A stretch of DNA of 61,107 nucleotides, counting the filler, from Nitrospinae bacterium RIFCSPLOWO2_12_FULL_45_22 (GTDB lineage Bacteria; 2-12-FULL-45-22), in NCBI GenBank assembly GCA_001803565.1. It is 5 parts of 5 records of this genome, joined end to end, with 100 filler letters (N's around TTAATTAATTAA, not from the genome) between each part and the next. Parts side by side here need not be neighbours in the genome. Positions count along the whole stretch, not along the records: positions 1 to 17,353 come from MHDQ01000048.1; 4 more parts are not named here. One strand, written 5' to 3'. This document shows positions 978 to 20,400 of the stretch, one piece after another. Numbering within the stretch: position 1 is the first letter of the stretch; every line of letters begins with the position of its first letter. Below the pieces are notes generated by a model. That model saw only the letters and a program-made list of their open reading frames with translations, had not been told where the DNA came from and made no database searches. A program made the translations under genes and the position numbers.

Positions 978-1268
978 ATAAAAGTACTATTTCAGAAGAA
1001 CTCAAGGTTTTACGAAAAAAAGGCTTGATACCAAATCCAGAACTTGGTAAAATAAATTTCCAAATCGATAAAATCCACAAAAGGACATTAAAAAGATGCA
1101 ACTTCTGGAGAAATTGCTAAATGAATTTCCTCTCATGGCTAAAGCAGAAGAAAAGAAGATTGTGGAAGAAGCGTGAAGACAAGAATCTTCTATCTCGGAC
1201 TCTTCAGTTTTAATCCCAAAAAATTAATTAACCGATATCTTTCTTTATCTTTATAAAGAAGTTAAGAT

Positions 1269-2003
1269 ATGAAACTATTTAAGCTATATCCTCTCTTATT
1301 ATTTAGTATAATCATTCTAGCCTGTGCTACTGGAAGCTCAAGAGAATCTATTAAAGAGGATCGCCGACAAAAAGGCATTCCCGAATCCATATCACAACAA
1401 TGGCAGCGAGAACAAGAAGAACGGATAGTTAAAGTGGGCGAAAAACTCATTGAATTAGCTCCCAACGCCAAAGAGTTCACCTTTCATTTAGCGATTTCAA
1501 AGAAAGATAGCGGAGGAATAATTGACCCTGACTCTGTTAATGCTTGGACGAATGGGTGGCAAATTTTTGTGACCCGGGGGATGATGCGCTTTATTAAAAA
1601 TGATCATGAATTAGCTGTTATTCTCGGACATAAAATTTCCCATGCTAACAGCGTCTCAAGAAAAGTCGTAAAAAGAAATATTGTTGATTACATACAGACT
1701 ATAGCATTTGCAACTGTGGGAATTCCTCCTATTTGGAATACACCGCCAATAGACCCCTCTACGATGAAATTTAACCACGGTGAAGAGAAAAAAAGCGATT
1801 ATGAAGGCCTACAATGGGCTTACAAAGCGGGATATGATATTTCTGGAGGTCCTGCTTTATGGGAACGTTTCTTCACTCAGATACCGGGTTCAGTAAAAGG
1901 TGGATTCCTGTCATCCCATCCCTGGTCAACAGAACGTTTTTTGCACATGCAAGAAATCATCCGTGAATTAACCCAAGCTTCTAGTTCCGGATCAGGAGAA
2001 TGA
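1269..2003 (+). CDS. M48-family metallopeptidase lipoprotein with degenerate zinc motif (HKISH)
   Basis: Lipobox ILAC, VNAW, TRGMM, ELAVILGHKISH, EKKSDYEG, AGYD, FLSSHPWSTER. Confidence 0.85.
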   Translation: MKLFKLYPLLLFSIIILACATGSSRESIKEDRRQKGIPESISQQWQREQEERIVKVGEKLIELAPNAKEFTFHLAISKKDSGGIIDPDSVNAWTNGWQIFVTRGMMRFIKNDHELAVILGHKISHANSVSRKVVKRNIVDYIQTIAFATVGIPPIWNTPPIDPSTMKFNHGEEKKSDYEGLQWAYKAGYDISGGPALWERFFTQIPGSVKGGFLSSHPWSTERFLHMQEIIRELTQASSSGSGE

Positions 2004-2637
2004 ATTTTTTGGATTTGGATTTTTGATAAAACTTGTAGATTGGTTGATCAAAGACCCAATTAATATTTTCAATCAAAATTTCGGAACATTCGGGCCGAAG
2101 GGAGGAAAGATTATAAAAAGAATATAAGATAAATCAAGGAATTACCGTCATGAATCAGGGAACCCCAAGTCCTTTAGTAGACCGAATGTCATATGAGATA
2201 TAGAAGGTGATGTTATTCTAGGGGGATATGTTGTCAAAGTATGAATAGGGTCAAATATTCTTGTATCCTTCGATAGCTGAAAAATTGCTTTTTTCTGCTT
2301 ATGCACTTGACTTTCCTAATCGTTCCTTACACACAAGATATACGATCTATATGTTTCCAAAATACCATATGCTGAAGCAACTTCAGTCAAGCGCATAAAG
2401 CAAGTAATTTTTTATTGACAAATTTTCTACCTTATGTTAGGAAAGCAGTAAGTGTTTAGGGTGGAGATAAAAGAAAATGAAACTAGATTAACAGTTTTCT
2501 ATTTATATCATACCTGAATTTGGAATAAGTTTTCCTTTTAATTTTTTGGAGTGTTGAGATTTCCAACTGACTTTATTGATGGAGGATGTGAAAAAGGTTT
2601 TTAGTATAGTAGCCTTTAAAAGAGGGAGGGAGGTTTT

Positions 2638-3877: not shown

Positions 3878-3888
3878 GTCTCCGATCC

Positions 3889-4704
3889 ATGTTACAACCG
3901 TACAGCTTTCCAGCCCGGGTCACTGATGATCGAGTTGGCTCAACGTTCGCGTGTGGAAGGAATGCACACCTGCAGAGGTGCCGACTTTGGTCCCGAGCTT
4001 TATGTCCGTTTGTATTATTGTTTATTCTAGTAGGCTGCGGTGCGGGCAGGCAGGAGTCCTCGGCACGAATCACGCGAGTGATATCCCCATGTGAGACCGT
4101 CCGCGATGAGCTTGACGCCGTGGTGACAGCAGTTCGAAAAGGAAGAGGCGAAGTTGCAGAGAATCAGCTTAAGAAGGCAGTGGCTCGCGCCCCAGTTTGC
4201 GCGCGAGCACATCTCCTGCTGGCTATGGTATTGCGCGAAAAAGGCAAGCTTACAAGTGCGCTGGAAGAGGCAAACGAAGCAGCACGCTTGGCGCCTGGCG
4301 ACGCAGTAATTCTGAACCTGATCGGAAATATACATGCTGCTATGGCGGCTAGCACGGGAAATCCACAGGAAGCGCTGGAGGAACTCACTATTGCCCGAAT
4401 CACTTATGCGGCCGCTATCAATATCGGCAATCCTGACATTCAATTTTCCAGCATGATCGGACTTCTAGGGATCTATCTGGAGCAAGAGCGGTTGCTTCGC
4501 CGCATCGGGAAACATACCGAGGCAGATGTGCTGCGCGTGGAAATCCAGGCATTTATTAAGGATAATCCCCGAACGAGCAAGACTCTCGAAATCTATGAGC
4601 TGCGCAATCCAACTGCTGTCCCTGTCCGAGTTGATGATCCGATGCACCCCAAGCCTGGCAAACGCACAGAACGACTGAGGCAAACCTTGGAAGGTACGAA
4701 ATGA
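3889..4704 (+). CDS. TPR-repeat lipoprotein (start uncertain, probably downstream of 3889)
   Basis: Lipobox LLFILVGC. TPR-like helices AHLLLAMVLREKGKLTSALEEANEAARLAP and AVILNLIGNIH. Confidence 0.7.
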   Translation: MLQPYSFPARVTDDRVGSTFACGRNAHLQRCRLWSRALCPFVLLFILVGCGAGRQESSARITRVISPCETVRDELDAVVTAVRKGRGEVAENQLKKAVARAPVCARAHLLLAMVLREKGKLTSALEEANEAARLAPGDAVILNLIGNIHAAMAASTGNPQEALEELTIARITYAAAINIGNPDIQFSSMIGLLGIYLEQERLLRRIGKHTEADVLRVEIQAFIKDNPRTSKTLEIYELRNPTAVPVRVDDPMHPKPGKRTERLRQTLEGTK

Positions 4705-4777
4705 GGATACCACTAACGATCGTTATGGAAACTCCGGGCCGGATAGTTTGAATAACAGGACCATAAGCAGATTTATC

Positions 4778-5377
4778 ATGAAAAAGAAGAGGATTATCAT
4801 ACTAATACTGGTGATAGTTATGCTTGGAGGCAGGGTGTCATCGGCCTACGCAAACCCTTATTTATTGCTTGCCCCCATCCTATTTGTGAAAACGATGCTA
4901 AGCGTCTTTGGTCTGATTGGTACTACAAAAGAGGTTGTTAATTTTATTGCATCGAACCCGCCCGGTATTGATGTGCCCCTCATGCGGGAAGATATAGTAT
5001 CGGCGCCGGTTGATCATGTATGGGAAATGCTCCTGAGCTATGTGCAGCGCTGTGGCTATGATGTCCACGTGGCCGCTAAACAGAGTGGTGCGCTCAGTTT
5101 TGGCTTCAGCATCAGTCCCGATGGTGACTACACAATGTCTTTGTACCCCGATAGCAGCGACGTGTGGACCGAGTGGGAAGGTTGGGAAGTGGAATATAAT
5201 GCTAAACTATACGTGACAGTATTTGTCAACCCTATTGGTCCCGGACGCACAAAGGTTAGCGTATGTTCACTGGCCCGGGTCCTCGGAAAGTACAAAAATG
5301 ATGTTTATAACATAGGATGGCGGGGGTCGAGCGGCCGCATAGAGCGCGAGGTACTCAATGCAGCAAGGGGTAGTTAG
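4778..5377 (+). CDS. Exported hypothetical protein, C-terminal DUF3568/BamC-like alpha/beta domain
   Basis: Signal peptide MKKKRIIILILVIVMLGGRVSSAYA. Pattern APVDHVW...TVFVNPIGPGRTKVSV...SSGRIEREVL. Confidence 0.6.
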   Translation: MKKKRIIILILVIVMLGGRVSSAYANPYLLLAPILFVKTMLSVFGLIGTTKEVVNFIASNPPGIDVPLMREDIVSAPVDHVWEMLLSYVQRCGYDVHVAAKQSGALSFGFSISPDGDYTMSLYPDSSDVWTEWEGWEVEYNAKLYVTVFVNPIGPGRTKVSVCSLARVLGKYKNDVYNIGWRGSSGRIEREVLNAARGS

Positions 5378-5926
5378 CAATGGCAACATCATAGTAGGAC
5401 TAGTGCTTTTGACTGTGCTCATCCTATGCAATGTTTGTAGTCTGAAGCCACATAGTGCTTTTGTTTGGGAGGACCCGTTCGGTCATTGCAGCAGCCGCAT
5501 GATTACTAGCGAAACAACAGTTGATAAGATAGTTCCTTTGGCGCCGGAGGAAGCCTGGGCAGCGGCCGTAACAGCGGCTGGGCGAAATGGCATCGTAAGT
5601 GAACTCATGGAGCGGGAGAGAACGGTCGCCTTTTTCGACGAGGATTTCTACTGCCAGGTAATTAAGCTCGCTCCGGTAGGAGAACGAACCCGGGTGNNNN
5701 NNNNNNNNNNNNNNNNNNNNNNNNNNNNNNNNNNNNNNNNNNNNNNNNNNNNNNNNNNCGGGTGATCATAATGGGTGCCCGTATGAAGGGGTTTCGGCTC
5801 CCACAAGAACCGCGAGATCTAACCCATCGCCCTGCCCGTATACTTGAAGCGTTATTGCAGGAGAGATTAGGAGAGAAGAAATGGTTAGATATCCTCAGAT
5901 CGCCAGTCCCATCGCGTTTGCCTTAG
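5358..5926 (+). CDS. Exported hypothetical protein, DUF3568-like, spanning an N gap
   Basis: Hydrophobic N-terminus and LAPEEAWAAA...KLAPVGERTRV. Both gap flanks read CGGGTG; merging them continues the frame (IIMGAR...GEKKWLDIL...) to TAG 5924-5926. Confidence 0.5.
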
Positions 5927-6705
5927 TGATCTTTTGCTTTCCGGCAGTGTATGCTGCCTCGCCAGAGATGGAGTGCTATGGTCATCTCACCGATGCACAG
6001 CTCACTGCTACCGTCCTCACACTTGAGAACGAACAGGTACGGGAGAACCTCCGCGCGATGGGCAGCCGAATAGAGGCAGGATGCAAGAGCGTGCCGATGC
6101 CATGTACTTACCGCGTGATCGTCGATCCGACCATAAATGCCCTCTCAGCACCGCCCTGCTATATATATATCACTACTGGGCTCCTTGATTTCGTGGAAAA
6201 CAAGGACGAGTTGGCAGGGATTATCGCGCATGAGCTTATCCATATCCGTGAAAACCATGCGGAAAAAAGCTTCTTCCGGACGAAGGTAGCTCGTGGCGGG
6301 GACATCGCTGTTATCACAGGCGCTGCTCAAGCAGCCGGGATCATGGCGGAAAAGGCCGTCCCGTTCCTGGGACTAACACCCGCAGGGATAATCCTCAAAG
6401 AGGTGGGAGGTTGGATAGCAGGTCAGGCTGCCGCCGGCTTGGCCGCTGAGGCTGCTACTCCACTAGGTCGGGCAGTTGCCGTTTACATCTACAAGAGCTA
6501 CTCTCACAACCAGGAATTTGCGGCCGATGCGATGGGTGCAAGATGTGCAGCGGCTATGGGATATAATAAAAAAGCGTTGATCGGTTTCTTCGAAAGGCTA
6601 GAGACCCTACCGAAGAATTCATTGGAATTCAATGTGCCAAGCCATTTCTTAAAAGATAGCCCATCTCTAGCCGAGCGGCGACGTAAGCTTGAGACCCTGC
6701 GATGA
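5881..6705 (+). CDS. M48-family zinc metallopeptidase, exported
   Basis: INA, YITTGLL, ELAGIIAHELIH (HExxH), QEFAAD, MGYN; signal peptide ending VYA. Confidence 0.9.
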   Translation: MVRYPQIASPIAFALVIFCFPAVYAASPEMECYGHLTDAQLTATVLTLENEQVRENLRAMGSRIEAGCKSVPMPCTYRVIVDPTINALSAPPCYIYITTGLLDFVENKDELAGIIAHELIHIRENHAEKSFFRTKVARGGDIAVITGAAQAAGIMAEKAVPFLGLTPAGIILKEVGGWIAGQAAAGLAAEAATPLGRAVAVYIYKSYSHNQEFAADAMGARCAAAMGYNKKALIGFFERLETLPKNSLEFNVPSHFLKDSPSLAERRRKLETLR

Positions 6706-6854
6706 CCGTGTATGCTCGGGATTTGCGAATGCTTCCTTTGTGCCCGAAGCGGAAAGGGAGGAATATTTATTAACGAAACATTGGCTAACACTGCATGAAA
6801 AACTGATGTCCAAACCCTTTCGGGCCTCATTTGTACCGGTACCGTTAGCTGAAA

Positions 6855-8159
6855 TTGCGAACAGAGAAAGGAGGCGACCCACTGAAAAATATCTTTAATT
6901 CTGATCAATGGATTCAGGCAGTGCTGGTACTTTTACTTACGGCTGGATGTGCCACTACTCCTAATGCACTATTGGAATCAGATGCGGTGGTAGCAACATC
7001 AGTGAAGCTGAGTGGACCATCGGGGTTGGCGATAGATGATGCGGGGAATTTGTATATCGCGGACACTAAGAACCACCGGATCCTAAAGGTAACAACTGGA
7101 GGTATGATTAGCACGGTTGCAGGTACAGGAAGGCGGAGTGCGTGGGATTGGCGGCAGGGCGGCTTCAGTGGAGACGGCGGCCCGGCAATCTCGGGAGAAC
7201 TGAATCAGCCATCTGGGTTGGCGGTAGATGGTGCAGGGAATCTGTATATCGCAGACAGCGGCAACAACCGGATCCGGAAGGTAACACCCACAGGTATGAT
7301 CAGCACGATTGCGGGCACTGGAAAAGGAGGCTTCAGCGGGGATAGAGGACCGGCAACTTCGGCGAAACTGAATAAACCATTTGGCGTGGCGATAGATAGT
7401 GCGGGAAGCCTGTATATCGCAGATACTTATAACCTCCGGATACGGAAAGTATCCCCCATAGGCGTAATCAGCACAGTGGCGGGCATTGGAAAAGGAGGTT
7501 TCAACGGGGATGGAGGGCAGGCGACTTCGGCGAAACTGACGCCATTTGCTGTGGCTGTGGATGGTGCAGGGAACCTGTATGTCGCGGACTTTTTCAACTG
7601 CCTGGTCCGGAAGGTAAATCCGGCAGGCGTGATCAACACAGTGGCGGGCAACGGGACGTATGGCTTCAGTGGGGACGGTGGACCAGCAACGTTAGCACAA
7701 CTATCTAATCCGACTGGTGTATCGGTGGATAAATTGGGGAATGTGTATATCATGGATCAGAACAACCACTGGATCAGGAAGGTAAACCCAGAAGGTAGGA
7801 TCAGCTCGGTGGTGTACCGCAACGAAACTCCTATAGGGCAATGGGCTGATCCCTTGCTAATAGCGTGGACGAGTGGTATAACTATGGATGGTGAAGGGAA
7901 CCTGTACTTCACTAGCGATGCCGGCAACAGTATACAGAATCTATCTAGACCACAGGGCGGAATTGCTACAGGAGGGACCTCAGGCTTAGTAATAAGTACA
8001 GTTCACAATATAGCTGCGGGCATATGGTATGGCAGGATTGGGATGGACAATCGATCGGTTAAATTCATCTCGTATAATAACAATCTATGGATCGAGAAGA
8101 TGACACCTACGGGTGCTATCAGCACCATGGCTGGCCTAGTCCAATCCAAGGTGAATTGA
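6855..8159 (+). CDS. NHL-repeat beta-propeller lipoprotein
   Basis: Lipobox LTAGC and about five 56-aa repeats (P-x-G-(L/V)AVD-x-x-GNLYIAD-x-x-N-x-RIRKV...GFSGDGGPA). AAGGAGG precedes an in-frame CTG at 6882, a possible true start. Confidence 0.9.
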   Translation: MRTEKGGDPLKNIFNSDQWIQAVLVLLLTAGCATTPNALLESDAVVATSVKLSGPSGLAIDDAGNLYIADTKNHRILKVTTGGMISTVAGTGRRSAWDWRQGGFSGDGGPAISGELNQPSGLAVDGAGNLYIADSGNNRIRKVTPTGMISTIAGTGKGGFSGDRGPATSAKLNKPFGVAIDSAGSLYIADTYNLRIRKVSPIGVISTVAGIGKGGFNGDGGQATSAKLTPFAVAVDGAGNLYVADFFNCLVRKVNPAGVINTVAGNGTYGFSGDGGPATLAQLSNPTGVSVDKLGNVYIMDQNNHWIRKVNPEGRISSVVYRNETPIGQWADPLLIAWTSGITMDGEGNLYFTSDAGNSIQNLSRPQGGIATGGTSGLVISTVHNIAAGIWYGRIGMDNRSVKFISYNNNLWIEKMTPTGAISTMAGLVQSKVN

Positions 8160-8302
8160 TAGTTACAGGTAGAAGATATGATAGCATAACTATTAACGAG
8201 TTTCTTCAAGATAAACCTATTTTCATGCTTCGTGGCGCCCCGTGGGTGCAGGAGGGTTTATCTTGTATTAATGTCTACCTTTAAGTAGACGAGGAGGTTT
8301 AG

Positions 8303-9631
8303 ATGAGAACGATATGGGTGGCTATATTAGCAGTTCTCGTCGTAGGGTGCGCGTTACAGGTGCCACATATACCATTTGCGACGCTCTTTGAAGAGGGACA
8401 TCCGATTGTCGCTAACGCTGGTTCTCCTTCCACAGCCGGTAATAACCTCAGCGGTGGATCAGTTATAGACCCAACACCACTATGGCCAGTAACTTCATCT
8501 TCGCTCGACGTTACGCGAATCCTGTTACTGCCACCGATCCCACCTCTGGAAGCACCAGTCACAGCGGTTGATATAGCATTCGAGATGGCAGCCGAGACTT
8601 TGGTGCTACCGACGCTCAGTACTATGTGGTCTCGTCCTTATGTTCCTGGGCTTTCTCTCTATGAACAAGCTATGACCCGACTCTCCGAACGCCTTTACAT
8701 TGTCCCAGGCGCGCGGGTCACTGGAGGGTACACACCGCTCGGAGTACCCATTGAGCGAAGCATAGTTGGGCTCTCTCCGCAAGTTCCTGTTTCTCCATCC
8801 GAGCGTACTTTCCGTTTCGCTGACCGGGTAGAGAATTTTGTGTTCTCCGAACGTGGGATTGGTCGTGTCGCCGATAGCATCGCGCTTGGCAGCAATGTTG
8901 CCGATTTCATCCATTCGATGCCAAGCGAGCCTATCCACCCTAATATAACCTTGGAGGAAAGCCTGGCGCTTTCCAGGTGGGGGGGGGAAGGCATAGCGCT
9001 TGTGCCAGAAGCCGTAACGACTATTGCAGGTATACCGAATATTTGGGGACCATCGATAGCGATTGGAACGGCGGTCATCAACAGCTATTGGAGGTTTACC
9101 GGTAACCTGATGACCGCAAACAATCAGATGCTCCAAACAAACTTGATCGGACAAGCGTTTGCAGCAAGCCCTGTATATGGGGCACAGATGCTTCAGCGCC
9201 TCCAGATCCCCAGAAGTTTCGAACTCACGGTGCCAAATTTTGCGCTGGTATACAGTGGTAGGTTTATCGATTCAACTTCCTTCTGGAAGCGAGGCCCGCT
9301 GATTTTCTCGCTTCCCGGCATCGAGCTTGGAGGATACCACTTCCAGTCAACTATGACGACCCATATGTCTGTAGGTTCCGGATCGTTTTTCCAAGGTCCC
9401 GTTTTACATCGCCCTTTCACTCTGGGAGGCCTACAACCTATACAAGGCCTGTCGCCTGATTTTGCTCGGATGCTACTAGGCGGCCCTGTAATGTGGGGCG
9501 ATTTCTCACGTGTTATGGGTTTATCGATGTCAGGATATGATGCAGTGAAGTTTCTTAATACGAACTCGAACTGGACGGAGCAGATGCTCCGATTCCAAGA
9601 CCTGCAAGTCCCCCGGGTGTCTGTGCCGTAG
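8303..9631 (+). CDS. Hypothetical lipoprotein
   Basis: GAGGAGG RBS, lipobox LVVGC, 442-aa ORF co-oriented with cluster; no recognised domain. Confidence 0.7.
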   Translation: MRTIWVAILAVLVVGCALQVPHIPFATLFEEGHPIVANAGSPSTAGNNLSGGSVIDPTPLWPVTSSSLDVTRILLLPPIPPLEAPVTAVDIAFEMAAETLVLPTLSTMWSRPYVPGLSLYEQAMTRLSERLYIVPGARVTGGYTPLGVPIERSIVGLSPQVPVSPSERTFRFADRVENFVFSERGIGRVADSIALGSNVADFIHSMPSEPIHPNITLEESLALSRWGGEGIALVPEAVTTIAGIPNIWGPSIAIGTAVINSYWRFTGNLMTANNQMLQTNLIGQAFAASPVYGAQMLQRLQIPRSFELTVPNFALVYSGRFIDSTSFWKRGPLIFSLPGIELGGYHFQSTMTTHMSVGSGSFFQGPVLHRPFTLGGLQPIQGLSPDFARMLLGGPVMWGDFSRVMGLSMSGYDAVKFLNTNSNWTEQMLRFQDLQVPRVSVP

Positions 9632-9693
9632 AACATGGTCTAGGGTGATTATATGTAATGCTCTAAAAAGAGTGTTTTAAAGGGAGGTTCAGT

Positions 9694-10620
9694 ATGTTGA
9701 AGAGGACATATGGGGGGCAAGTGTTTCTCCTTTTTAAAGCCATCTGTCTAACAGCTTCTTTATTTTATTCCAATCTGGTTTTTGCAGAGACGGGAGAAAT
9801 TGATCCTGAGGAGCAGCGCATTGGCTACTTCGTGGATTATTTCACAACTCGTGTGCATGGGAAGATTACAGATGAGCAAATCACGAGACCTATCAAGAAG
9901 CTCGTAGAAGATATCGTGCGCGCTACAGAAAAGCCTGATATGAGTTTCACAGTCCGGGTTTTAAACGACCCTTTGTATGTGAATGCTTCCGTGGCGCCTG
10001 GTGGTTATATTTACGTGGGTAGAGGCCTACTAGACATGTTATCACGCATACAGTCTGAGATGAACGTTGATCCAAGGGATGAGTTGGCTGCCGTTTTAGC
10101 GCATGAGGTGGCTCACGGAATTCATGACCATCCCATATCGACCATACGGCGATTGAAGCGATTAGGTGATATTACACAAGGGTTACGAACTATTGGAACC
10201 ATAGGCGGTCTTGCTGCTGGTGCAATGGCCGGCTATTCACTGGGCACGAGTGCGACAAGTGGGCTCTATGGTTCCACACAAGAATTTTACACAGATATGC
10301 TGACGAGGATAGGAGCAGGTATGGGCATCTCGTTAGGGAATGCTTTTATTGGGTCTACGAGCAAAATGATAGCAATTCTCCTTCATCAAGGGTTCAGTCG
10401 CAACTACGAAAGAGATGCGGACCAGCAGGGGATAAAGTATCTCAGTCTGGCAGGATACGATCCCAAAGCGGTCATCTCGCTCTATCAGAAATTCGACAGG
10501 GTAAAGAGAATGGCACAGAGAAATACAGAGCATGTTCATCATTTTTTGTCTAGTGAATATACCTTGGCAGAGAGAATAAAATATGTTTCTAGACAAGTTC
10601 TTGGCTCTGCGGGAAAATGA
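9694..10620 (+). CDS. M48-family zinc metallopeptidase, exported
   Basis: VNASVAPGGYIYVGRGLL, ELAAVLAHEVAH, FSRNYERDAD, AGYDP; GGAGG RBS. Confidence 0.92.
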   Translation: MLKRTYGGQVFLLFKAICLTASLFYSNLVFAETGEIDPEEQRIGYFVDYFTTRVHGKITDEQITRPIKKLVEDIVRATEKPDMSFTVRVLNDPLYVNASVAPGGYIYVGRGLLDMLSRIQSEMNVDPRDELAAVLAHEVAHGIHDHPISTIRRLKRLGDITQGLRTIGTIGGLAAGAMAGYSLGTSATSGLYGSTQEFYTDMLTRIGAGMGISLGNAFIGSTSKMIAILLHQGFSRNYERDADQQGIKYLSLAGYDPKAVISLYQKFDRVKRMAQRNTEHVHHFLSSEYTLAERIKYVSRQVLGSAGK

Positions 10621-11048
10621 GTCTGCTAATGACTAAATCGATCTTGTTATCCGTGGTTGTCTGCTTAGGGTGTTCCGCTTGCGCCACTTCTCCGTCTCAA
10701 TCTCAACGGTATCCCAGTGGGGAGGTTCCCGTGGCAACGAGCGAGCCAAAGAAGGTTGTTCTCCCTTTGCCTCATAAAGAGGTTTGGACAGCCATAGTAA
10801 GAATGATTCTGTTCGAAGGAGGCAAGATTCAATCCCTTCAAAAGGACAGAAGATTTATTGCATGTGATATGGTGGTGCCCGCTATTGGCATCGTTTTTGT
10901 GAAAGTGGAAGTGCAAGAGAGCGATAGGGGAACTGTACTTGGAGTTACAGCAGCAAGTAAGACACCACCATCCATGGATGTTTCAGAAGTCGTCCTTGAA
11001 AAACTCAAAATAGCCGTAGTACCAACCAAATACGAATGGCTCAAGTAG
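10617..11048 (+). CDS. Small lipoprotein, DUF3568-like
   Basis: ATGA overlap with the M48 gene; lipobox LGC/SAC; LPHKEVWTAIV...VKVEVQESDRGTVLGV. Confidence 0.65.
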   Translation: MSLLMTKSILLSVVVCLGCSACATSPSQSQRYPSGEVPVATSEPKKVVLPLPHKEVWTAIVRMILFEGGKIQSLQKDRRFIACDMVVPAIGIVFVKVEVQESDRGTVLGVTAASKTPPSMDVSEVVLEKLKIAVVPTKYEWLK

Positions 11049-11052
11049 AACT

Positions 11053-11229
11053 ATGATGGTGAAAAAATTTGTAACAGTTAGCCTTGCTCTTTTATTCATA
11101 AGTGTTGGATGTAGTTTCTCCAACTTGACCTCTTCCCATCCCACCTTAAAGGAGAGAATGGAAGAGTCACAGAAAGTCATTGATTCGCTTCCCTCAATTA
11201 AGAAGAATGAAAAAGAACGGAAAGAATAA
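11053..11229 (+). CDS. 58-aa lipoprotein carrying the M48 C-terminal H-P-x4-R motif (absent from the ORF track)
   Basis: Manual translation MMVKKFVTVSLALLFISVGCSFSNLTSSHPTLKERMEESQKVIDSLPSIKKNEKERKE*; lipobox SVGC; starts 4 nt after the upstream stop. Confidence 0.7.
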   Translation: MMVKKFVTVSLALLFISVGCSFSNLTSSHPTLKERMEESQKVIDSLPSIKKNEKERKE

Positions 11230-11617
11230 CGTTTCTCCACTAAGGTCTTGGAAAGAAATATGTTTATTCATCGCTTGGTTGTGTGGTGGATGCGGATCAA
11301 TTCCGAATCTACCCACATCCGTGGAAAGTTCACAGATCTTTCCTGTCCAATATTCCGTTATGTGGAACATTGTTAAAAAGTTCATCCCATGGCAAGTCAA
11401 ATACGAAGATGAATCGATGGGTTTTGTTGTATATGACACCTTTTACGGTGGGGAAAGTGTGACCATTAATTTACTTATAGAAGAAGTTGGCGCGAATCGC
11501 ACAAAAGTAATTGTCATACCAACGTTTCCATCATTAGCTAAATTATCTCCTGGAAAAGCAGAAAAAACCGTACTGCAAATGCTGTCTTCGGCAGTGGAAA
11601 AGGAGAAACGAAATTGA
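11180..11617 (+). CDS. Small lipoprotein, DUF3568-like (start uncertain)
   Basis: Lipobox LCGGC; PVQYSVMW...INLLIEEVGANRTKVIV resembles the 4778 protein. Confidence 0.6.
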   Translation: MIRFPQLRRMKKNGKNNVSPLRSWKEICLFIAWLCGGCGSIPNLPTSVESSQIFPVQYSVMWNIVKKFIPWQVKYEDESMGFVVYDTFYGGESVTINLLIEEVGANRTKVIVIPTFPSLAKLSPGKAEKTVLQMLSSAVEKEKRN

Positions 11618-12273
11618 CGATTCTCGTACGGATTCTAGCTGTTCTACTAGCGATTTCGTTGATAGGCCTTCCAGGCTGTGCCGGGAAAAGATTCACTCTC
11701 CAAAAAGAAATCTTTATTCTATCCGAGCTTAAGGGCGGCAAAACTTTGTCCATACAATTATTCAAAGTGACGTCTATACCAAAATATGACGCGGAGCCAA
11801 TTGATAACTTAAGACGATATTTAGCGGAAAAACTTGCATCGTCGCTTCGCGGGCTTAATGTATTCAGCAACTGTGTCATTTTGGGCGAGAATGAGAAAGC
11901 TCAGACTGATTTACTCCTTGAAGGAGATATTACTGCTGTGGATGAAGGAGAACCTGCAGGAATATGGCAGCGCAGCTTTGGTTCCATTGACCCCAAGAAC
12001 TGGGCCTTATTTGCTGTGCAGGCAAGAATCATTAAGAATCAAGATTCATCGATAGTTTACAAGCCTACAGAGATAAGCGCAGGGAGAACAGATGCGGAGG
12101 AACTAATAAGAGCTGGCTCCAAGAATCTGGCTGCGGGCATTGCTGGATTCAGAGCCGAACATTGTCTCATAGGGTGTGGACCAGTCACCGAGGATATGCG
12201 CGAAGTAATTGATTCGGTAGTATGGAAAATCACAGAGGATCTAAAGAGCGAATTATCTAAGACTGTGGATTAA
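11614..12273 (+). CDS. Lipoprotein, possibly DUF4410-like
   Basis: TTG start overlapping the previous stop; lipobox LPGC; DLLLEGDITAVDEG motif. Confidence 0.65.
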   Translation: MTILVRILAVLLAISLIGLPGCAGKRFTLQKEIFILSELKGGKTLSIQLFKVTSIPKYDAEPIDNLRRYLAEKLASSLRGLNVFSNCVILGENEKAQTDLLLEGDITAVDEGEPAGIWQRSFGSIDPKNWALFAVQARIIKNQDSSIVYKPTEISAGRTDAEELIRAGSKNLAAGIAGFRAEHCLIGCGPVTEDMREVIDSVVWKITEDLKSELSKTVD

Positions 12274-12520
12274 ATTGTGTAAATGCTTTTTTCCATGTCT
12301 AACGGCCTTAGTGAGAAGGAAAAAAGATAGCTATTATCCGAACTATGAATATCCCAATGTGCCCTGAAGCGTTTTGATTTGCATAGATTAATCAACTCTT
12401 GTAGACTTGCGAATTAAACCAGCCTGATTTTCCAAATTATATTGACCTGGAAAGAGGGGGTTTTTCCGGATTAATCCAGATTTTTTGCAGATTATTCCAG
12501 CGATTAAAATAATGTGGAAA

Positions 12521-12556
12521 GGGAGGAGCACCCGGTGGGTACCGGGGTCTCCTCCC
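12521..12556 (-). terminator. Hairpin just downstream of the transposon operon
   Basis: GGGAGGAG (12521-12528) pairs with CTCCTCCC (12549-12556); the loop holds a variant of the 17-bp insert. Confidence 0.45.
12529..12545 (+). repeat. 17-bp palindromic insert, variant copy
   Basis: CACCCGGTGGGTACCGG. Confidence 0.65.
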
Positions 12557-12565
12557 ACCATAATA

Positions 12566-12928
12566 TTATTCAGCTAAGCTATCCAGGATAGCTAACAGGA
12601 TGGGATAGCAGTAGGGATCTGGAGAGACAAAAGGCTCCTCCGGGATGATATCGGTGGAATAGAGGACGGAGGGGCTAAAGGATTTTACTGAAGAGAATTC
12701 CTTTTGAATTGCATCTAGCAAGGGTTGTTGGTTAGATTCCTCCAGGCAAGTAGCGATCCTTAAGGATGCAGAGAAGGCCTGCTGGAGGGCCTTTAGAGAG
12801 TTGGTAACGGCCTCTGGTGGGCAGGCAGAGGGGAAGCGGGTTTTGAAGACTGCTACCCCCTGGTTATCCAGGGCGACCAGATAGAGGTGGGAATTAGTTT
12901 GTTTAATACCGAGATATAGTTTCATCAT
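12566..12928 (-). CDS. 120-aa hypothetical protein, N-terminus resembling the IS110/RNase H-like first strands
   Basis: AAGGAGG RBS before ATG 12928. MMKLYLGIKQTNSHLYLVALDNQG resembles Y-x-G-I-D...H...L-D-x-x-G with Asp replaced by Lys. Confidence 0.6.
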   Translation of the reverse strand: MMKLYLGIKQTNSHLYLVALDNQGVAVFKTRFPSACPPEAVTNSLKALQQAFSASLRIATCLEESNQQPLLDAIQKEFSSVKSFSPSVLYSTDIIPEEPFVSPDPYCYPILLAILDSLAE

Positions 12929-12950
12929 TCTTCCTCCTTTGGTTAAGGTT

Positions 12951-13760
12951 TCATGATATTTCGGTGACGGCCTCCCGTACATGGTCGCCATCAACAATTT
13001 GACTCTTTTTGCTGGCACAGGCCATAAGGGAGGCCTGGGCCAGGAGGTTAACTTTTCTGGGGATACCTTTGGAGGCCTGATAGATGGCCTCTATAGCCGG
13101 CTCCGAGAAGAGAGGATTAGTAACCCCTACGCGGTTCAGGTAGTGTTTTAGATAAAGAGGTAGTTCTTTACGGGTGAGGCCCTCCAGGTGGTAGCGCATG
13201 ATGATCCTTTGGTTTAAGGGCTCATTGATATTGAGGCCTAGCTTTCTGCGTAGCTCTGCCTGGCCAACCAGGATGAGGGTAAGGTGATCCTGGCTATCCA
13301 TATGGTAGTTGGTGAGGAGCCTGAGCTCCTCCAGGGCCTCTATGCGGAGTAAGTGGCCTTCGTCCACAATCAGGAGAGGAGAGATCTTTTTACTCTCTAC
13401 CATGCGCTCTATCTCCTGGTGTATCTGGATATAGAGTTTGGCCCTGGAGCTTGGGGCAATAAGCCCTAGCAGCTCTGCCAGGGACTTATAGAGATCCAGG
13501 ACACTCCCAGTCGTATTGGGGAAGTAGAGGGGCTTATAGAGGCCTGGGTTAAGGGTGGTGCAGAGGGCCCGGCACCCAGAGGGTACCCGGGTGGTTTTTC
13601 CGCTTCCTACCTCACCGGTTACCAGGCCGATGCCCCTCTTTTTTACCAGGTAATCTAACCTGGTAGAGAGTTCTTTGAAGTGAGAGCTCAGAAAGAGCTC
13701 CTGAGGTGGGATATCTTTAGGGAAGGGTTCACCGGTCATACCGAAATAGGTCTTATACAT
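12951..13760 (-). CDS. ExeA-like AAA+ ATPase (transposition helper)
   Basis: MYKTYFG...PF start, Walker A GEVGSGKT, Walker B LLIVDEGH, LILVGQ, SKGIPRKVN. Confidence 0.92.
   Translation of the reverse strand: MYKTYFGMTGEPFPKDIPPQELFLSSHFKELSTRLDYLVKKRGIGLVTGEVGSGKTTRVPSGCRALCTTLNPGLYKPLYFPNTTGSVLDLYKSLAELLGLIAPSSRAKLYIQIHQEIERMVESKKISPLLIVDEGHLLRIEALEELRLLTNYHMDSQDHLTLILVGQAELRRKLGLNINEPLNQRIIMRYHLEGLTRKELPLYLKHYLNRVGVTNPLFSEPAIEAIYQASKGIPRKVNLLAQASLMACASKKSQIVDGDHVREAVTEIS
13573..13589 (+). repeat. 17-bp palindromic insert in the ATPase gene
   Basis: CACCCAGAGGGTACCCG; encodes RVPSGC after Walker A. Confidence 0.9.
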
Positions 13761-14115
13761 GGTCTTTGTCCTCCTTTCTGGGTTGGTTTTGGTAGTAGTT
13801 TTGGTGTACTAGCTCTACATAGTTGATACCTGATCTTCTGATCTTAAGGGGCGAGGTAGAAGAGACTAGCTCTTTGCTATCATCATCCCTTTTTACGAAG
13901 CAATTTTCGTAGGCCTTGGTGGGGGTAGCGACCTGCTCTAGCTTCCCTTCAAAATAGACCTTTACCTGGGACTTATCCTGGGGGTTGAAGCGGATCTCTA
14001 CCCCTTTGCCAACCAGGTGGGCTGGGGCCTCATATAAGATGCCATCTAGAGAGAAGGTGCGGTCGTTATAGATCTTCCGCTTCATACGGTGGAGGAAGAT
14101 CTCTTCCAGGTCCCT

Positions 14116-14178
14116 GGAGTTTGGGAGTTAGGGAGTTAGGGAGTTGAAAACTCCACAACTCCTGAACTCTACAACTCC
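14116..14178. repeat. Octamer tandem-repeat hairpin inside the transposase
   Basis: Four GGAGTTNG-type units followed by four AACTCYNN-type units. Confidence 0.85.
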
Positions 14179-14255
14179 TCAACCCTACGAGGCGCATCCA
14201 CTTGTCCAGGGGTGTCTCATTGAGGCTGGAGTGGATGGTTCTGTGGTATTCACCT

Positions 14256-14272
14256 CGGGTACCCCCTGGGTG
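14256..14272 (-). repeat. 17-bp palindromic insert in the transposase
   Basis: Minus strand CACCCAGGGGGTACCCG; encodes HPGGTR. Confidence 0.9.
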
Positions 14273-14593
14273 CCAGGCCCAGAGTCTGGAGTTAAGGTCT
14301 TCCAGTCCCTTGATCTTTTCCATATCAAACTGGTTAAGGAACTGCATACGCAATGTCCTGAAAAATCTTTCTGCTTTTCCCTTTCCCTGTGGGACATAGG
14401 CCTTAGAGTGGATAAGGATAATACCCAGACTGGCACAGACTACCTGGAGGTGGTGGCTTCGGTACACTGACCCGTTATCGCAATAAAGCCTTAAGGGCAC
14501 GCCTTTTTTGAGCAGGGCCTGCTTAAAGGCATGCTCAAAGGAGAGCAGCCCCTCATCAAAATAGAACTGGGCATGGGGGACTACCCGAGTGGC

Positions 14594-14610
14594 CGGGTAC
14601 CCTCTGGGTG
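14594..14610 (-). repeat. 17-bp palindromic insert in the transposase
   Basis: Minus strand CACCCAGAGGGTACCCG; encodes PPRGYP. Confidence 0.9.
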
Positions 14611-14821
14611 GGAGGAAGGCATAGAGATAAGTTTTTCTCCTCCTACCGGTTTGAGGGACAAGGATCCTGGGGCCATGGAGGCAATCACTCTGATACAACT
14701 CCCCTGGGTAGGCATATTCAAAATGGCGTCGGTCTTTAGCCGGGCTTTCCTGATGAACCAGTCCTTGATTTACCAAAAGGCGGTGGATGGTGGAAGGAAC
14801 AATCCTTTGGTGAGGGGGTAT

Positions 14822-14838
14822 CGGGTGCCCTATGGGCG
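14822..14838 (-). repeat. 17-bp palindromic insert in the transposase, variant
   Basis: Minus strand CGCCCATAGGGCACCCG; encodes PPIGHP. Confidence 0.8.
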
Positions 14839-15481
14839 GTGCCAGTTCCAACTCCCGGGCGATGATAGTTGCCGAGCGGGAGGGGTTTTCTTCCTTGAGG
14901 GCGATAATAAGCTCGGCCAGCTCCGGAGGAAGGGTCCTGCTCTGTCCCTGATCCGAACGTTCTTTGGGCTTAAGGGCCTCAAAGCCTCCCCGGCGATACC
15001 TGGTCATCCAATCTTTCAGGGTAGCCGAGGCAATGCTGGTCCGGGCGCTATGGGGAAGGGAGTAGGTTTGGCTGACCTTTTCCCTGAGCAGGGCGCTCTT
15101 TTCCCCGGGGCAGAACTCCCGGCTGAAGAACTCTGAAATTACACCGAACCTGAACAATGCGATGTCATCCTGCTTCTTTTCATCCATGATAAACCTCCTT
15201 GAGAAAAAGGGTTAAATGATAAAAACGATCCCATCGATTATGGGGGTCAGGGTAGCATCCCTTGCTAGCCCATGCTATGCAAGATCTGTGTGGGTGGTTG
15301 CGGTGAGATCTGGCCTGGCATTTGGTGGGTTGGATTAATTTGAAAAAAAAGGGTAGAAATCCCCCTTCCCAGGAGAAAAATTAGAGGGTTAGAGGAAAGG
15401 TCCTGGTCGTATCAGCCTTTGAGGAAGCAAAGAAAATGGAGTTTAAACGTTCCTACAGGGTAACGGATTTAAGTGTGGTTG

Positions 15482-15505
15482 CCTGTCTGCCAAGGCACAG
15501 GCAGG
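15482..15505. repeat. 24-bp imperfect palindrome
   Basis: CCTGTCTGCCAAGGCACAGGCAGG. Confidence 0.6.
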
Positions 15506-15523
15506 AAGGAAAAGACTCGTTGG

Positions 15524-16081
15524 TCAGAGTAATGCTCGATAGAAATGGAGGGAAAAATATTGGTTAGTAGCCGCAAAGAGTTGGCCACTATCCTGGGCCA
15601 GACCAAAGAAGAGGGAGAGATGCTGGAATATGTTCAGAGTCTTTTTCATCCCTTTGAGGGGCAAAGCCCCTCTGATCCTGGAGATCTTTTTCTGCCAGCG
15701 TTTACACCAATACTGAGCCCGTTGATAAGAGATATCTGGGCGGCCAATGGCTTCATTACACCCTTTATAGGTTTTCCCCTGGCTACGGTGCCAGAGAAAG
15801 CTCTCCACCACTTGCACAGGTTTACCAATACCCTGGCAGAGAAAAGTGGGCAAGAGAGCAAAGGTACTGGCACCCATGGGGTACCCGGCTTTGCAAAGCG
15901 AACGTTTTATCCAAACTACCAGTTGCCCACACCATCGGCTATAAAAGCCATGCCCAATGACCTCATTCCCTCTTCGGCAGTTAGGGCAGAGATCTATCTT
16001 GGGAAAGTGGTTATATTTTCCTTGCGCCGCATAATCCTTGACAGAGATACCAAAATCGTATACGATCATCCTTGGTTGCAA
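15524..16081 (-). CDS. DUF6431-like zinc-ribbon/HTH protein
   Basis: CPNC...GHGFYSR...IKRSLCK...TFALLPTFL; located upstream of the DDE integrase. Confidence 0.75.
   Translation of the reverse strand: MQPRMIVYDFGISVKDYAAQGKYNHFPKIDLCPNCRRGNEVIGHGFYSRWCGQLVVWIKRSLCKAGYPMGASTFALLPTFLCQGIGKPVQVVESFLWHRSQGKTYKGCNEAIGRPDISYQRAQYWCKRWQKKISRIRGALPLKGMKKTLNIFQHLSLFFGLAQDSGQLFAATNQYFSLHFYRALL
15871..15887 (+). repeat. 17-bp palindromic insert in the DUF6431 gene
   Basis: CACCCATGGGGTACCCG; encodes GYPMG. Confidence 0.9.
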
Positions 16082-16297
16082 GGGGCCCTTGAAGACATTC
16101 TTTGCAGGATTAGCACATCTAATCCCGAGCAGTCTTCAAGGGCTTTGCTGTTTATAGGGGATCTTTCTGAATAAATTGGCTCTTTTTTATATCACAAGGC
16201 TGGATGATTGTGAATAAATTTTAGGGATTCTGGATAAAATAATTACTGGGGTTACAGGTGGGAGGTCAGGCCGTTCGACCCTCCTTGGCTCTGTGCA

Positions 16298-16834
16298 ATG
16301 TTCGGTATTGGAATTGTGCTCCTCTCGCACTTTCCCTTTGTTGTAAAGCGGAACAAAAGCGCACAGAAGTTTAATACTGAAAGTTTCCGCGCAGGAGTAG
16401 GAGCCGTCATCTACAAAGCCGATTGGCTGGTTCTGGCCTTTGAGCGATCGGACAGATCCGGGTCTTGGCAGCTCCCACAGGGCGGCGTTGAACATCGCGA
16501 GACTTTAGAACAGGCGCTGTTCCGCGAGATAAGAGAAGAAACCGGGTTGACTCGGGACCATCTAACCATTTGCCTAGAGGTACCGACCTGGATGGGATAT
16601 GAGTTGCCGCTAGACGCGCGCAGCGAGAAGACTGGTCGAGGTCAGATTCACAAGTGGTTTTTCTTGGAGTTCGTGGGAAACGAAGCTGCCATCAATTTGA
16701 AGGCCGGCGGCGAGTTCAGAGCTTGGCGGTGGAGCGATCTTCGGGAACTCGCTGACTCAGCGGTTGAGTTCCGCCGCCCAGTCTACAGTCAATTGGTTGC
16801 AGTCGCAGCCGCGAAGGTCTGGCAGTCTACCTAA
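16298..16834 (+). CDS. NUDIX hydrolase, RppH-like, as an integron gene cassette (start uncertain)
   Basis: FRAGVGAVI, WQLPQGG-x5-E-x7-REIREETGL Nudix box, GQIHKWF, EFRAWRW; the stop codon lies inside an attC-type ACCTAAC. Confidence 0.88.
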   Translation: MFGIGIVLLSHFPFVVKRNKSAQKFNTESFRAGVGAVIYKADWLVLAFERSDRSGSWQLPQGGVEHRETLEQALFREIREETGLTRDHLTICLEVPTWMGYELPLDARSEKTGRGQIHKWFFLEFVGNEAAINLKAGGEFRAWRWSDLRELADSAVEFRRPVYSQLVAVAAAKVWQST

Positions 16835-16867
16835 CACGGCGCTGCACCTGACTGCCTACAGCCTCCG
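16829..16867 (+). other. Left arm of an attC site, interrupted
   Basis: ACCTAAC inverse core followed by an arm ending CAGCCTCCG, the same 9-mer found in the intact attC at 17201. Confidence 0.7.
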
Positions 16868-17072
16868 GTGCGCTGCAGTAGTTCATGCAGCATCCCCATT
16901 GTAGATGGGAAGGATTCAGAGGACATCCTTGGGTCAGCGGCTCACCTAAACCCGAAAGGGCGAGGGGACAAGAGCCTGCCGACAAAGCCGGGAACGGAGA
17001 GAAGACGCTGAAACCGTTGCTCGGCGAGACCCGCGTGACAGGGCGAAAGCTCAACTGCCTGAAGTCCAATCC
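16868..17072 (+). ncRNA. Group II intron 5' (domain I) remnant
   Basis: Begins GTGCG exactly where the attC arm breaks; GNRA-capped hairpins CCCGAAAGGG and GCGAAAGC; no RT ORF or domain V follows. Confidence 0.6.
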
Positions 17073-17200
17073 CATTCGGTCGATGGATAGCCTCTGGCTA
17101 CAGCGTCTAAGGGAGAAAATGGGGACAGATTTATTTCTCCGAGTGTGTGCATGGGCCGAGGAGCGGATGGACCAGAGACAGCTGATCAGAACCTTCCCGC

Positions 17201-17288
17201 GCCTAACAACCCAGTGGAGCCGACGCCCAACAGCCTCCGCTCCTGCGTCGCTCCGGCTGTTGGGCGCGGCTCACCGGGAGCGTTAGGG
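17201..17288 (+). other. Integron attC site (88 bp)
   Basis: GCCTAAC...GTTAGGG cores; arms GAGCCGACGCCCAACAGCC and GGCTGTTGGGCGCGGCTC pair with an extrahelical base. Confidence 0.88.
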
Positions 17289-17353
17289 GAGCAGCCGACA
17301 AGGCTGCAATCTTATGGGGTGAAAGTCCCCTGCCGTCAATTGCTCGATTCAGA
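17289..17353 (+). ncRNA. Probable 5' end of a second group II intron, cut by the contig end
   Basis: GAGCAGCCGACAAGGCTGCAATCTTATGGGGTGAAAGTCCCC: degenerate GTGCG start and a GGGGTGAAAGTCCCC domain-I-type hairpin. Confidence 0.45.
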
Positions 17354-17454: not shown

Positions 17455-20400
17455 GACAACATATTTACTATTCGATTCTACAAACCCAGAATTGAAGGGT
17501 TGTTTGCCCGGATTGAAAGGTGGACTCATAAAACTACGGGTGAGATTAAATGGCGGGTAATCACCAAAGAGAACGTAACCACTCTTTTTGGCTGGAGCAT
17601 CAATTCCAGGATTGCCGACCCCAGGGATGCCAATAAAATATTTGAATGGCTGCCTGAATTTATCTTTGACGACAAAGGCAATTGCACTCATTACATCTAT
17701 AAGAAAGAAGACGACAAAGGATTTAACCCTTCTCTGTTGCACAATAGAAACCGCACTGAAAACGGAAATATTACTTACACCAATCTGTATTTAGAAAAGG
17801 TGCTATACGGCAACAAAACGCCTTACAAAGTTTTCACCGACCCGTTCCCCCCTGAAACAGATTACCTTTTCCAAACGGTATTTGATTACGGAGAGTATGA
17901 CACTAACGCCCCATATAACAAAATAAAAGATTGGGATTTCAGAATTGATGCTTTTTCAGAATACAAATCCGGCTTTGAAATAAGAACCACACGACTCTGC
18001 AAAAGGGTTGTGCTGTTTCACTATTTTACGGAACTTCCCGGCGGCTCGGCTTTGGTAAAATCCCTCAACTTTGCATACGACACTTCAACCGAAGAAGATT
18101 TTACCTTCTTAAAATCCATCACCGCCTATGGATATATTAAGAAAGCCGATGGGACCTATACAAATAAAAATCTTCCTTCTACCGAATTTGGATATCAGAA
18201 ACACGAGTGGAACAAAGATGTCAAATCCATTTCACCGGATGCTCTGGTTCATGCGCCTACCGGATTGGATGAGCCGCTATATCAATTCACTGATTTATTT
18301 AGCGAGGGGCTCTCCGGAATATTAACCGAACAGGCCGATGGCTGGTATTACAAGCACAATCTGGGTGATGGCAAATTTGAGCAGGCAAAATTAGTTTCTC
18401 CTAAACCCTCTTTTGCCGGTTTGGGCNNNNNNNNNNNNNNNNNNNNNNNNNNNNNNNNNATGAGAACGAATGGCAGCCATTCCGTACTTTTGAAAGCCTT
18501 CCAAATATTGATTTGGGTAATGCCAATACCCGTATGTTTGACCTGAATGGTGACGGCATGCCTGATGTTTTAATAACCGAAGATAATGTCTTTACATGGT
18601 ATGAATCTGCTGGTAGAAAAGGTTTTACGCAGGTTTATAAAACGCCTAAATCTTTTGATGAGGAGAAAGGCCCGCATCTTGTATTTGCCGACCCCAAACA
18701 AGCCATCTTTCTGGCAGATATGTCAGGCGATGGCATGACGGATATTGTCCGCATTCGCAATGGAGAGATTTGCTATTGGCCCAACATAGGTTATGGCAGG
18801 TTCGGCGCTAAAGTCAGTATGGACAATGCCCCTGTTTTTGACCATCCTGATTCTTTCAATCCTGCCTATTTGAGATTAGCCGATATTGACGGCTCAGGCA
18901 CTACGGATATTATCTACCTGGGCAAAAACAGATTCAGTTGCTGGAAAAATTTGAGCGGCAATTGTTTCAGCTCCACAGCCTTTGAGATAGATGCCTTCCC
19001 GGAGATACACAATCAATCCAAAATAACGGTAACCGATCTGCTTGGCAATGGCGTAGCCTGCATAGTATGGTCCAGCAATCTAACTAAGGATGCAACTGCC
19101 CCTTTAAAATACATAGACCTGATGAACAGCAAAAAACCGCACATCATGGTCTCTTATAAAAATAATCTGGGCAAAGAGGTAACCCTTGAATACACACCTT
19201 CCACCAGGTTTTATATTGAAGACAAGTTGGCAGGAAAACCATGGGTTACCAAACTGCATTTTCCGGTGCATTGCATATCCAGAACCGAAACCAGAGACAG
19301 GATTTCAGGCTATCGCTTTGTGAGTTCCTATAAATACCACCACGGCTACTATGACCATGCCGAACGGGAGTTCAGGGGTTTTGGCATGGTGGAGCAAACA
19401 GATGCGGAAGACTTTGACCATTGGGTAAAGGGCAATGCCAGTAATATTGTAGATAAAACCCTTCATCAAGAACCTGTCACTACAAAATCCTGGTTTCATA
19501 CCGGGGCATTTTTAAGCAAGGAAAAAATACTCAACCAGTTTGCACATGAATACTGGTATGAAGAAATGGACCGGCAGGGCTTTGCAGTGGTCAATCATGA
19601 ACAGCCTTTGCCCGATGCCCGGCTTATCGCTGCCCCGGGATTAGGTGCATCCATCATAGACCACCTCAGCGCAGAAGAATGGCGGGAAGCCCTTCGGGCT
19701 TGTAAAAGTATGGCATTGCGTTCAGAGGTATTTGCAAAGGATGCCCCGCTTGTTGGCGCTACACCTGCTCAACGTCAGAAAGAATTAACCCCCTATTCCG
19801 TTGCCACGCATAATTGCGTCATTGAACTCCTGCAACCCAAAGGCAAAAACAAACACGCTATTTTTGCAGTGAAGGAAAGCGAAGCCATCACCTACAGCTA
19901 CGAGCGAAACACCGAAGACCCACGCATTGCCCACAACCTGAATATAAAATTAGACGAATATGGAAATGTATTGGAATCGGCCGCTGTTGTATATCCGAGA
20001 ATGTTGGCAGATGCTGCATTGCCTGCTGAGACACAACAAGCTCAAAATACTACTGCCATTATTTATACCCAAAATCATTTTACCAATGATGTGATAAGTG
20101 ATGATGAATACCGTTTGCGGTTGCCATCAGAAGTAAAAACCTTCGAATTGAAGGGTGTGACTAAAGCCAATCCTTTATACTCACTAAATGATTTTGAGAA
20201 TATCCTTACGGCTGCCAATGAAGCAGATTATCACCAGATAGATGCCAATCCTGCCCCCGGAACTTCTCAGAAAAGATTAATCGAGCATATACGAAATATC
20301 TTTTATAAAAATGACCTTACCGGCGCTTTAGCCTTACATCAGTTGGAATCATTGGCGCTGCCTTTTGAAAGCTATCAATTGGCTTATACCCCAGCCCTTA

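Follow-up and report, generated by a model that had tools for sequence, protein, structure and literature searches.

A 58-residue lipoprotein carrying an M48 protease plug beside M48 enzymes without the plug histidine: a possible histidine switch in trans

The H-P-x4-R plug occurs family-wide in M48 proteases, and in BepA its histidine, H246, is the fourth zinc ligand (PMC7950410). According to this and later reports, the H246A substitution or deletion of the plug loop raises BepA activity (bioRxiv 2020.07.07.192476), and the plug, held by R252 and D205, is regarded from bacteria to humans as a conserved element in cis, with its release under active study (bioRxiv 2026.07.01.735768). A separately encoded M48 plug was not found in the open-access literature searched. 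The locus described here, from Nitrospinae bacterium RIFCSPLOWO2_12_FULL_45_22, raises the question of whether such a plug may exist, because a short ORF with a lipobox and an H-P-x4-R motif lies close to M48 genes without the plug histidine. The original prediction was that the plug may be supplied in trans, the alternative being an internally deleted M48 relic.

The short lipoprotein and its operon

The window, by which the whole analysed stretch of DNA (61,107 nucleotides) is meant, joins five contigs, and the short ORF lies on contig C48 (window 1-17353). The host genome (3.67 Mb, 85% complete, with one same-order relative) encodes signal peptidase II (PF01252) and Omp85 and has a diderm envelope, which makes lipoproteins in the periplasm plausible. 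Between transposase genes at 3-758 and 12951-15187 every gene from 1269 to 12273 is on the plus strand, and among them is an operon of the order 9694-10617-11053-11207-11614 with overlapping junctions:

9694..10620 (+): M48 without the plug histidine (His-less), first operon gene; PF01435 E 1.3e-19; HEVAH 137-141, E239, D243 and R294 intact; Glu288 replaces the plug His, with His283 five residues upstream (10540-10542); no lipobox seen
10617..11048 (+): small A7-family lipoprotein; ATGA overlap with 9694
11053..11229 (+): 58-residue predicted mini-plug lipoprotein; signal peptide residues 1-19, Cys20 at 11110-11112; plug HPTLKER at 11137-11157; helix residues 32-45 (single-sequence AlphaFold2)
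11207..11617 (+): second A7-family lipoprotein, 136 residues from the ATG at 11207
11614..12273 (+): lipoprotein, last operon gene; TTGA overlap; weak DUF4410 match (PF14366, E 0.003, below the cut-off)

The 58-mer ORF begins 4 nt past the stop codon of 10617, and its last 23 nt overlap the beginning of 11207, so that it fills the gap in a tightly coupled operon, in which one gene separates it from 9694. Promoter and terminator scans stayed at chance level.

The predicted anatomy of a 58-residue ORF with a lipobox and then H-P-x4-R was borne out, since a lipobox-like SVGC at Cys20 is followed by LTSSHPTLKERM with His29, and the ORF consists of an M48 plug and its trailing helix behind the signal peptide. 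The basic n-region, hydrophobic h-region and lipobox Cys match the lipoprotein pattern, and the 58-mer is predicted to be expressed and lipidated. It has neither HExxH nor the third-ligand Glu, i.e. no M48 catalytic core. The single-sequence AlphaFold2 model of residues 20-58 (pLDDT 81) has a coil over the His, then the helix and no strand, and the helix resembles the last helix of M48 domains.

A broad plug profile was built solely from 115 His-bearing homologues, with zero window proteins included. With this profile the 58-mer (domain score 17.5 bits, sequence E 0.006) ranked second among the 59,765 ORFs obtained from the genome in six frames, rank 1 being an HtpX-like tail at a contig edge, and the mature peptide scored 19.6 bits against a maximum of 8.9 in 20,000 shuffles. 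In NCBIfam a weak match to the HtpX C-terminus was obtained (E 0.07). The frame has the highest codon score of the six (0.055), and contigs from three further runs, all of one strain and hence no gauge of conservation, span the ORF with 0 differences, so it is not an assembly artefact. These results confirm a real ORF with a plug match far above chance. The HtpX-like gene with the top-ranking tail is itself seemingly split over the ends of contigs C9 and C57.

The reading of a chance motif in an unrelated small lipoprotein draws on the lack of any Pfam match to the 58-mer (PF01435 gave none at E 0.1) and on Atlas scores below 0.9. It is largely refuted, and we find it scarcely credible, given the second rank in the genome at 0.5 kb from an M48 gene, the far lower scores of the shuffles and a gene position that is the M48 slot in relatives.

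M48 enzymes without the plug histidine and plug-tailed TPR proteins

Upstream of the operon the following genes are found:

1269..2003 (+): divergent lipoprotein M48, HKISH (catalytic Glu to Lys), plug His kept; PF01435 E 6.7e-12
3889..4704 (+): TPR lipoprotein (TPR_16 E 8e-11) with C-terminal plug HPKPGKR at 4645-4665 (His253 of 271); the actual start codon is possibly farther downstream
4748..5377 (+): A7-family protein of the first cassette
5358..5765 (+): A7-family protein of the first cassette, its end hidden by the N run 5697-5758
5881..6705 (+): second His-less M48; PF01435 E 5.6e-20; HELIH 117-121 intact; Ser260 at the plug-His position, with His255 five residues upstream (6643-6645)

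As was predicted, 5881 (FLKDSPSLAER) and 9694 (FLSSEYTLAER) have an intact HExxH and no plug His, and 1269 combines HKISH with FLSSHPWSTER. The PF01435 scores of 9694 and 5881 are 71 and 72 bits against a cut-off of 20.3, and from their sequences both are M48 proteases with the catalytic residues kept and with predicted proteolytic activity. The plug His (BepA H246) is present in 138 of the 139 other alignment rows and absent from these two. Among database M48s the plug motif is present in 211 of 219, a count from which a false regex match to HPx4R just after HExxH in 9694 and P0001, which is not the plug, was excluded. The closest orthologues, P0001 (65% to 9694) and P0125 (48% to 5881), are His-less too, so the loss of the His is old; further His-less enzymes are encoded at loci L119 and L223. 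In all six the HExxH, third-ligand Glu, Asp and Arg are invariant, and no canonical lipobox was seen by eye, whereas all 11 His-bearing relatives whose N-terminus is intact have a lipobox-like Cys.

The claim that the neighbours had lost their plug holds for the His and not for the rest, since the plug loop, the Arg (R294), the Asp (D243) and the last helix are all kept. The two enzymes are predicted to fold like BepA and 3C37, and their own loops occupy the site in the model, which is zinc-free and was made from a mostly His-bearing alignment. This counts against a plug in trans, for which the own loop, Arg and helix would need displacing.

A brake in cis may also have been rebuilt. Five of the six His-less enzymes (9694, 5881, P0001, P0125, L223) have a His at -5 from the lost plug His, compared with 1 of 211 canonical M48s, and five of six have Glu at 0 or Asp/Glu at -1, the latter found in 0 of 211 canonical sequences. 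Position -5 is that of BepA Glu241, which adjoins the plug helix covering the cleft (bioRxiv 2020.07.07.192476), and the -5 His is a possible relocated zinc ligand in cis. This fits the relic explanation, according to which the 58-mer is what a deletion left of a duplicated M48, has no function and stays open solely through translation coupling in the operon, and the enzymes are either self-braked in cis (by the -5 His or by an acidic residue at 0 or -1, i.e. a shifted His or a Glu/Asp switch) or constitutively active. Against the cis brake stands L119, with a plug donor adjacent and without the -5 His; the enzyme of L223, with no donor found, has it.

The TPR protein 3889, upstream of 5881, carries the second detached plug. 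Taken alone this plug is weak, scoring 7.3-7.4 bits with the broad profile at a genome E of 4.4; BLAST shows the protein to be a homologue of the TPR protein that bears the plug at L119 (E 9e-8, 26% identity), with H, P and R aligned. L119 belongs to the Omnitrophota genome G402, which was the one among the five genomes first examined to have a His-less M48 with a linked plug. There the His-less M48 gene (INAEPGLEER) ATGA-overlaps a TPR gene whose product has HPSYEER and a helix at its end, and two A7 lipoproteins come next. Scored with the independent plug profile, the TPR tail reached 12.9 bits (domain E 0.07 in 1.0 Mb), among the top non-M48 matches of that genome, and its protein has no lipobox by eye. 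The strongest support for a plug in trans is the conservation of H-P-x4-R on a TPR protein that is itself no protease and lies next to His-less M48s in two distant genomes, and the relic explanation leaves it unaccounted for.

The window thus contains two cassettes, in each of which a His-less M48 is accompanied by two A7 proteins and a detached plug; a third such cassette is that of G402. The A7 proteins (10617, 11207, 4748, 5358 and relatives) form one unnamed family, to which no assignment was found in Pfam, NCBIfam or PDB. An A7 lipoprotein follows the M48 in every related locus, in 15 genomes (the host of the window and those of L119, L121, L037, L038, L162-L166, L175, L180, L201, L222, L223), and the family is likely a dedicated M48 partner. 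One member (L180) carries a fused PDZ domain.

The gene 1269 is presumably inactive, judging from its catalytic motif. It has a long branch in the tree, shows no preference for the A7-linked clade and is not placed there; it may serve as a third donor of the plug or represent a stage on the way to the mini-plug.

Several other observations concern the surroundings. Orphan proteins 2816-3877 (353 aa) and 8303-9631 (442 aa, with a lipobox-like start) stand each upstream of one cassette and gave no Pfam or NCBIfam match, and an NHL-repeat (teneurin-type) lipoprotein (6855-8159) is located between the two cassettes. On contig C49 a large gene unrelated to the 58-mer (window 17500-24512) is broken at the N run 18427-18459; by its motifs we take it to be SpvB/toxin-complex-like plus RHS. 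Outer-membrane beta-barrel genes flank His-less cassettes (L223 956-1717 and 3865-4533; L119 5218-5637), as judged from PF13505 and weak PF03349 matches, with L223 956 assigned by appearance only and some of the genes seemingly broken; these neighbours hint at barrel quality control. Among M48s at large, the plug His is kept with the Pro replaced (H-S, H-R, H-A) in L002 1027-2340, L013 1150-2106, L015 3-1073 and P0113, and P0082, P0016, P0130 and P0206 are motif-less M48s outside the clade studied. L263 and L264 are PDZ-type M48s that have the plug His and do not belong to the M48 and A7 unit.

Relatives, controls and the origin of the short ORF

No family of conserved short lipobox-HPxxxxR ORFs, which would have strengthened the original prediction, was recovered: protein databases and 400 genomes gave no homologous small ORF. 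A search of 5.8 billion proteins found only the 58-mer itself, and another of 1.84 billion gave two spurious matches, which are sums of weak repeats. In the 400 genomes there were 14 matches at E up to 0.05, about the chance number, none of them a short HPx4R lipoprotein. Plasmids gave a single match at E 5, the metagenome scan recovered the same strain only, and the viral scan returned nothing. A 63-aa Atlas cluster, 28% of it PF01435, scored 0.81 and 0.87 against a threshold of 0.9 and is a lead only. The 58-mer is too diverged to match any M48 in homology search, and with no homologue at hand selection on the peptide is not measurable. The same-order genome G001 (68% complete) was found to be without the M48 and A7 unit.

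The origin of the ORF is indicated by its place, since the 58-mer lies immediately before an A7 gene, at the place that belongs to the M48, and the segment 9694-10617-11053-11207 can accordingly be read as a tandem duplication of an M48 plus A7 pair. At the equivalent gene position 12 relatives carry a full-length M48, which is a lipoprotein in the 11 with an intact N-terminus. The [ST]SH of the 58-mer plug is common to 9 of 10 clade members and 7 of 242 others, and [ST]L at +2/+3 is shared by the 58-mer and 4 His-less enzymes, compared with 0 of 211 canonical M48s; on a narrow profile of 12 clade plugs the 58-mer scored just 6.6 bits. Probably, to judge from these features, the 58-mer arose as an internally deleted duplicate M48, cut between lipobox and plug. 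To this extent the alternative offered with the original prediction is upheld by the relatives; it does not exclude a regulator role, because a deleted M48 may still regulate.

The control search covered about 1,600 further genome slots, in overlapping groups. It gave 12 genomes, seven of them from one class, in which a related His-bearing M48 is directly followed by an A7 protein, and within 2-19 kb around these units a detached plug was found in 0 of 12, the best non-M48 plug scores being 6.3 and 6.6 bits with no full motif. At the thresholds used, no clade members were found in 151 Elusimicrobiota-group genomes or in 25 other genomes. In quick trees with the plug region removed, a branch sets the A7-linked enzymes, His-less and His-bearing alike, apart (SH-aLRT 96 with 8 rows, 94 with 15 rows). 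Support in quick trees for grouping the His-less enzymes together was 89 for four, 79 for five and 0 for six (SH-aLRT); the His may have been lost once or more often.

The counter-example is genome G1235 (locus L223), which has a His-less M48 (SHLLSGQPGLEKR) and two A7 genes. A donor had been expected there beforehand, and no HPx4R was found in any frame of the 4.8-kb contig (MAG about 0.9 Mb); the three other plug matches of this genome are M48s. In total a detached plug accompanies three of four His-less genes with context, or two of three genomes against 0 of 12 His-bearing ones (Fisher p 0.029, which is overstated because the discovery genome and its kin are included); when the discovery genome is left out, one of two genomes stands against 0 of 12, and p, calculated by hand, is about 0.14. 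The proposal of a plug in trans thus gained a second detached plug at 3889, a TPR-plug gene beside a His-less M48 in G402 and clean His-bearing controls, and lost ground through G1235, in which no donor was found, and the lack of a conserved small ORF.

The relic explanation is favoured by the full-length M48 of relatives, by the missing homologues of the 58-mer and by G1235. It does not account for a remnant whose reading frame is preserved and in which precisely the lipobox, plug and helix survive despite divergence beyond M48 matching. We regard it as the main rival, doubtful on balance and of appreciable probability nonetheless.

It can also be supposed that the detached plugs address another target, as a docking motif or decoy for A7 lipoproteins, TPR partners or housekeeping M48s. 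The enzymes' own loops still filling the site in the model, A7 lipoproteins on the flanks of both donors and the further M48 matches in the genome agree with this, but detached plugs were seen only next to His-less enzymes and in none of the 12 His-bearing A7 units, and such a role appears very unlikely.

A switch in trans and its counterparts

Since BepA becomes hyperactive through the H246A substitution or when its plug is deleted, some other brake is plausibly required where the His is missing. The reading we prefer, held tentatively and at slightly less than even confidence, is that of a split M48 in which the membrane-tethered 58-mer would be a histidine switch acting in trans on 9694. 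The anatomy of the sequences, the conserved loss of the His, the gene linkage and a second donor type conserved in a second genome are what is observed. In the ancestral unit an M48 lipoprotein bearing its own HPx4R plug would have preceded an A7-family lipoprotein. After duplication of the unit 9694 would have kept the catalytic core without lipobox and plug His, and an internal deletion would have reduced the second copy to lipid anchor, plug and last helix. The 58-mer does hold both pieces missing from 9694, the lipid anchor (lipobox by pattern and eye) and the plug His. Tethered to the membrane, it would bind periplasmic 9694 and place His29 on the zinc as fourth ligand, and 9694 would be held latent until the 58-mer is displaced, like the BepA histidine switch in cis. 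By the presumed pairing of donors with enzymes, the TPR protein 3889 would play an equal role for 5881.

The same contact may have the opposite effect, the 58-mer binding to 9694 so as to restore the His for zinc retention or catalysis and to tether the soluble enzyme, i.e. as an obligate two-chain protease. The 58-mer indeed bears the lipid anchor missing from 9694. The equivalent His has a transition-state role in thermolysin-like enzymes. Nor is the fourth-ligand His always a brake, since MepA is reported to be less active without its His and in Ste24/ZMPSTE24 structures the equivalent His is off the zinc. On the other hand BepA, the nearest characterised relative, is reported to be hyperactive on loss of H246, R252 or D205, the TPR donor of L119 is without a lipobox by eye, and in G1235 the enzyme is present with no donor found. 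According to these facts an activator or anchor is unlikely.

If the switch in trans operates, it has several partial counterparts. The BepA (YfgC) switch is alike in the H-P-x4-R and trailing helix and in the fold shared by 9694, 5881, BepA and 3C37; in all described cases, however, its plug is within the enzyme chain, whereas here it is on separate genes (the 58-mer and the TPR protein) and the enzymes are His-less. In the KLIKK-peptidase/potempin pairs of Tannerella forsythia a small lipoprotein gene is likewise linked to a peptidase gene and a dedicated membrane inhibitor is proposed (PMC9890683), but potempins are 98-132-residue beta-barrels unrelated to their targets, while the mature 58-mer is a 39-residue coil-helix and a piece of the target family. 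The 58-mer, if working, would thus be a potempin in logic and a BepA switch in chemistry, and not a potempin by fold. The cysteine- and aspartate-switch propeptides of MMPs, astacin and fragilysin also put a residue at the fourth zinc site in place of water (bioRxiv 2020.07.07.192476), yet they are N-terminal, belong to the same chain and are cleaved off, unlike the 58-mer, which is C-terminal in origin, His-based and separately encoded. In BofA/SpoIVFB a separate small protein is found in a zinc protease cleft (PMC9042235); there the protease is an intramembrane M50, BofA is not enzyme-derived, and the authors favour a steric block without a zinc ligand.

In broader terms the cassettes may represent an M48 subfamily which outsourced its histidine switch, with a portable HPx4R module on a lipopeptide or TPR tail inhibiting the linked His-less enzyme, a conception that is a little easier to doubt than to trust. 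Even with the 58-mer as a relic, a His-less, otherwise intact subfamily with a relocated His and plug-tailed TPR proteins is unreported in the open-access literature searched. If the conception is true, the abundance or location of the partner, or the binding of a ligand by the TPR, would determine how active the protease is, and no M48 inhibitor encoded on a gene apart and derived from the family itself would have preceded this one. A natural split version would demonstrate that a plug can act as a free-standing zinc ligand, would yield a titratable on/off pair for M48 activation studies and would suggest that short plug peptides can inhibit the M48 family, making it a natural template for plug-peptide inhibitors of BepA, HtpX, OMA1 or ZMPSTE24.
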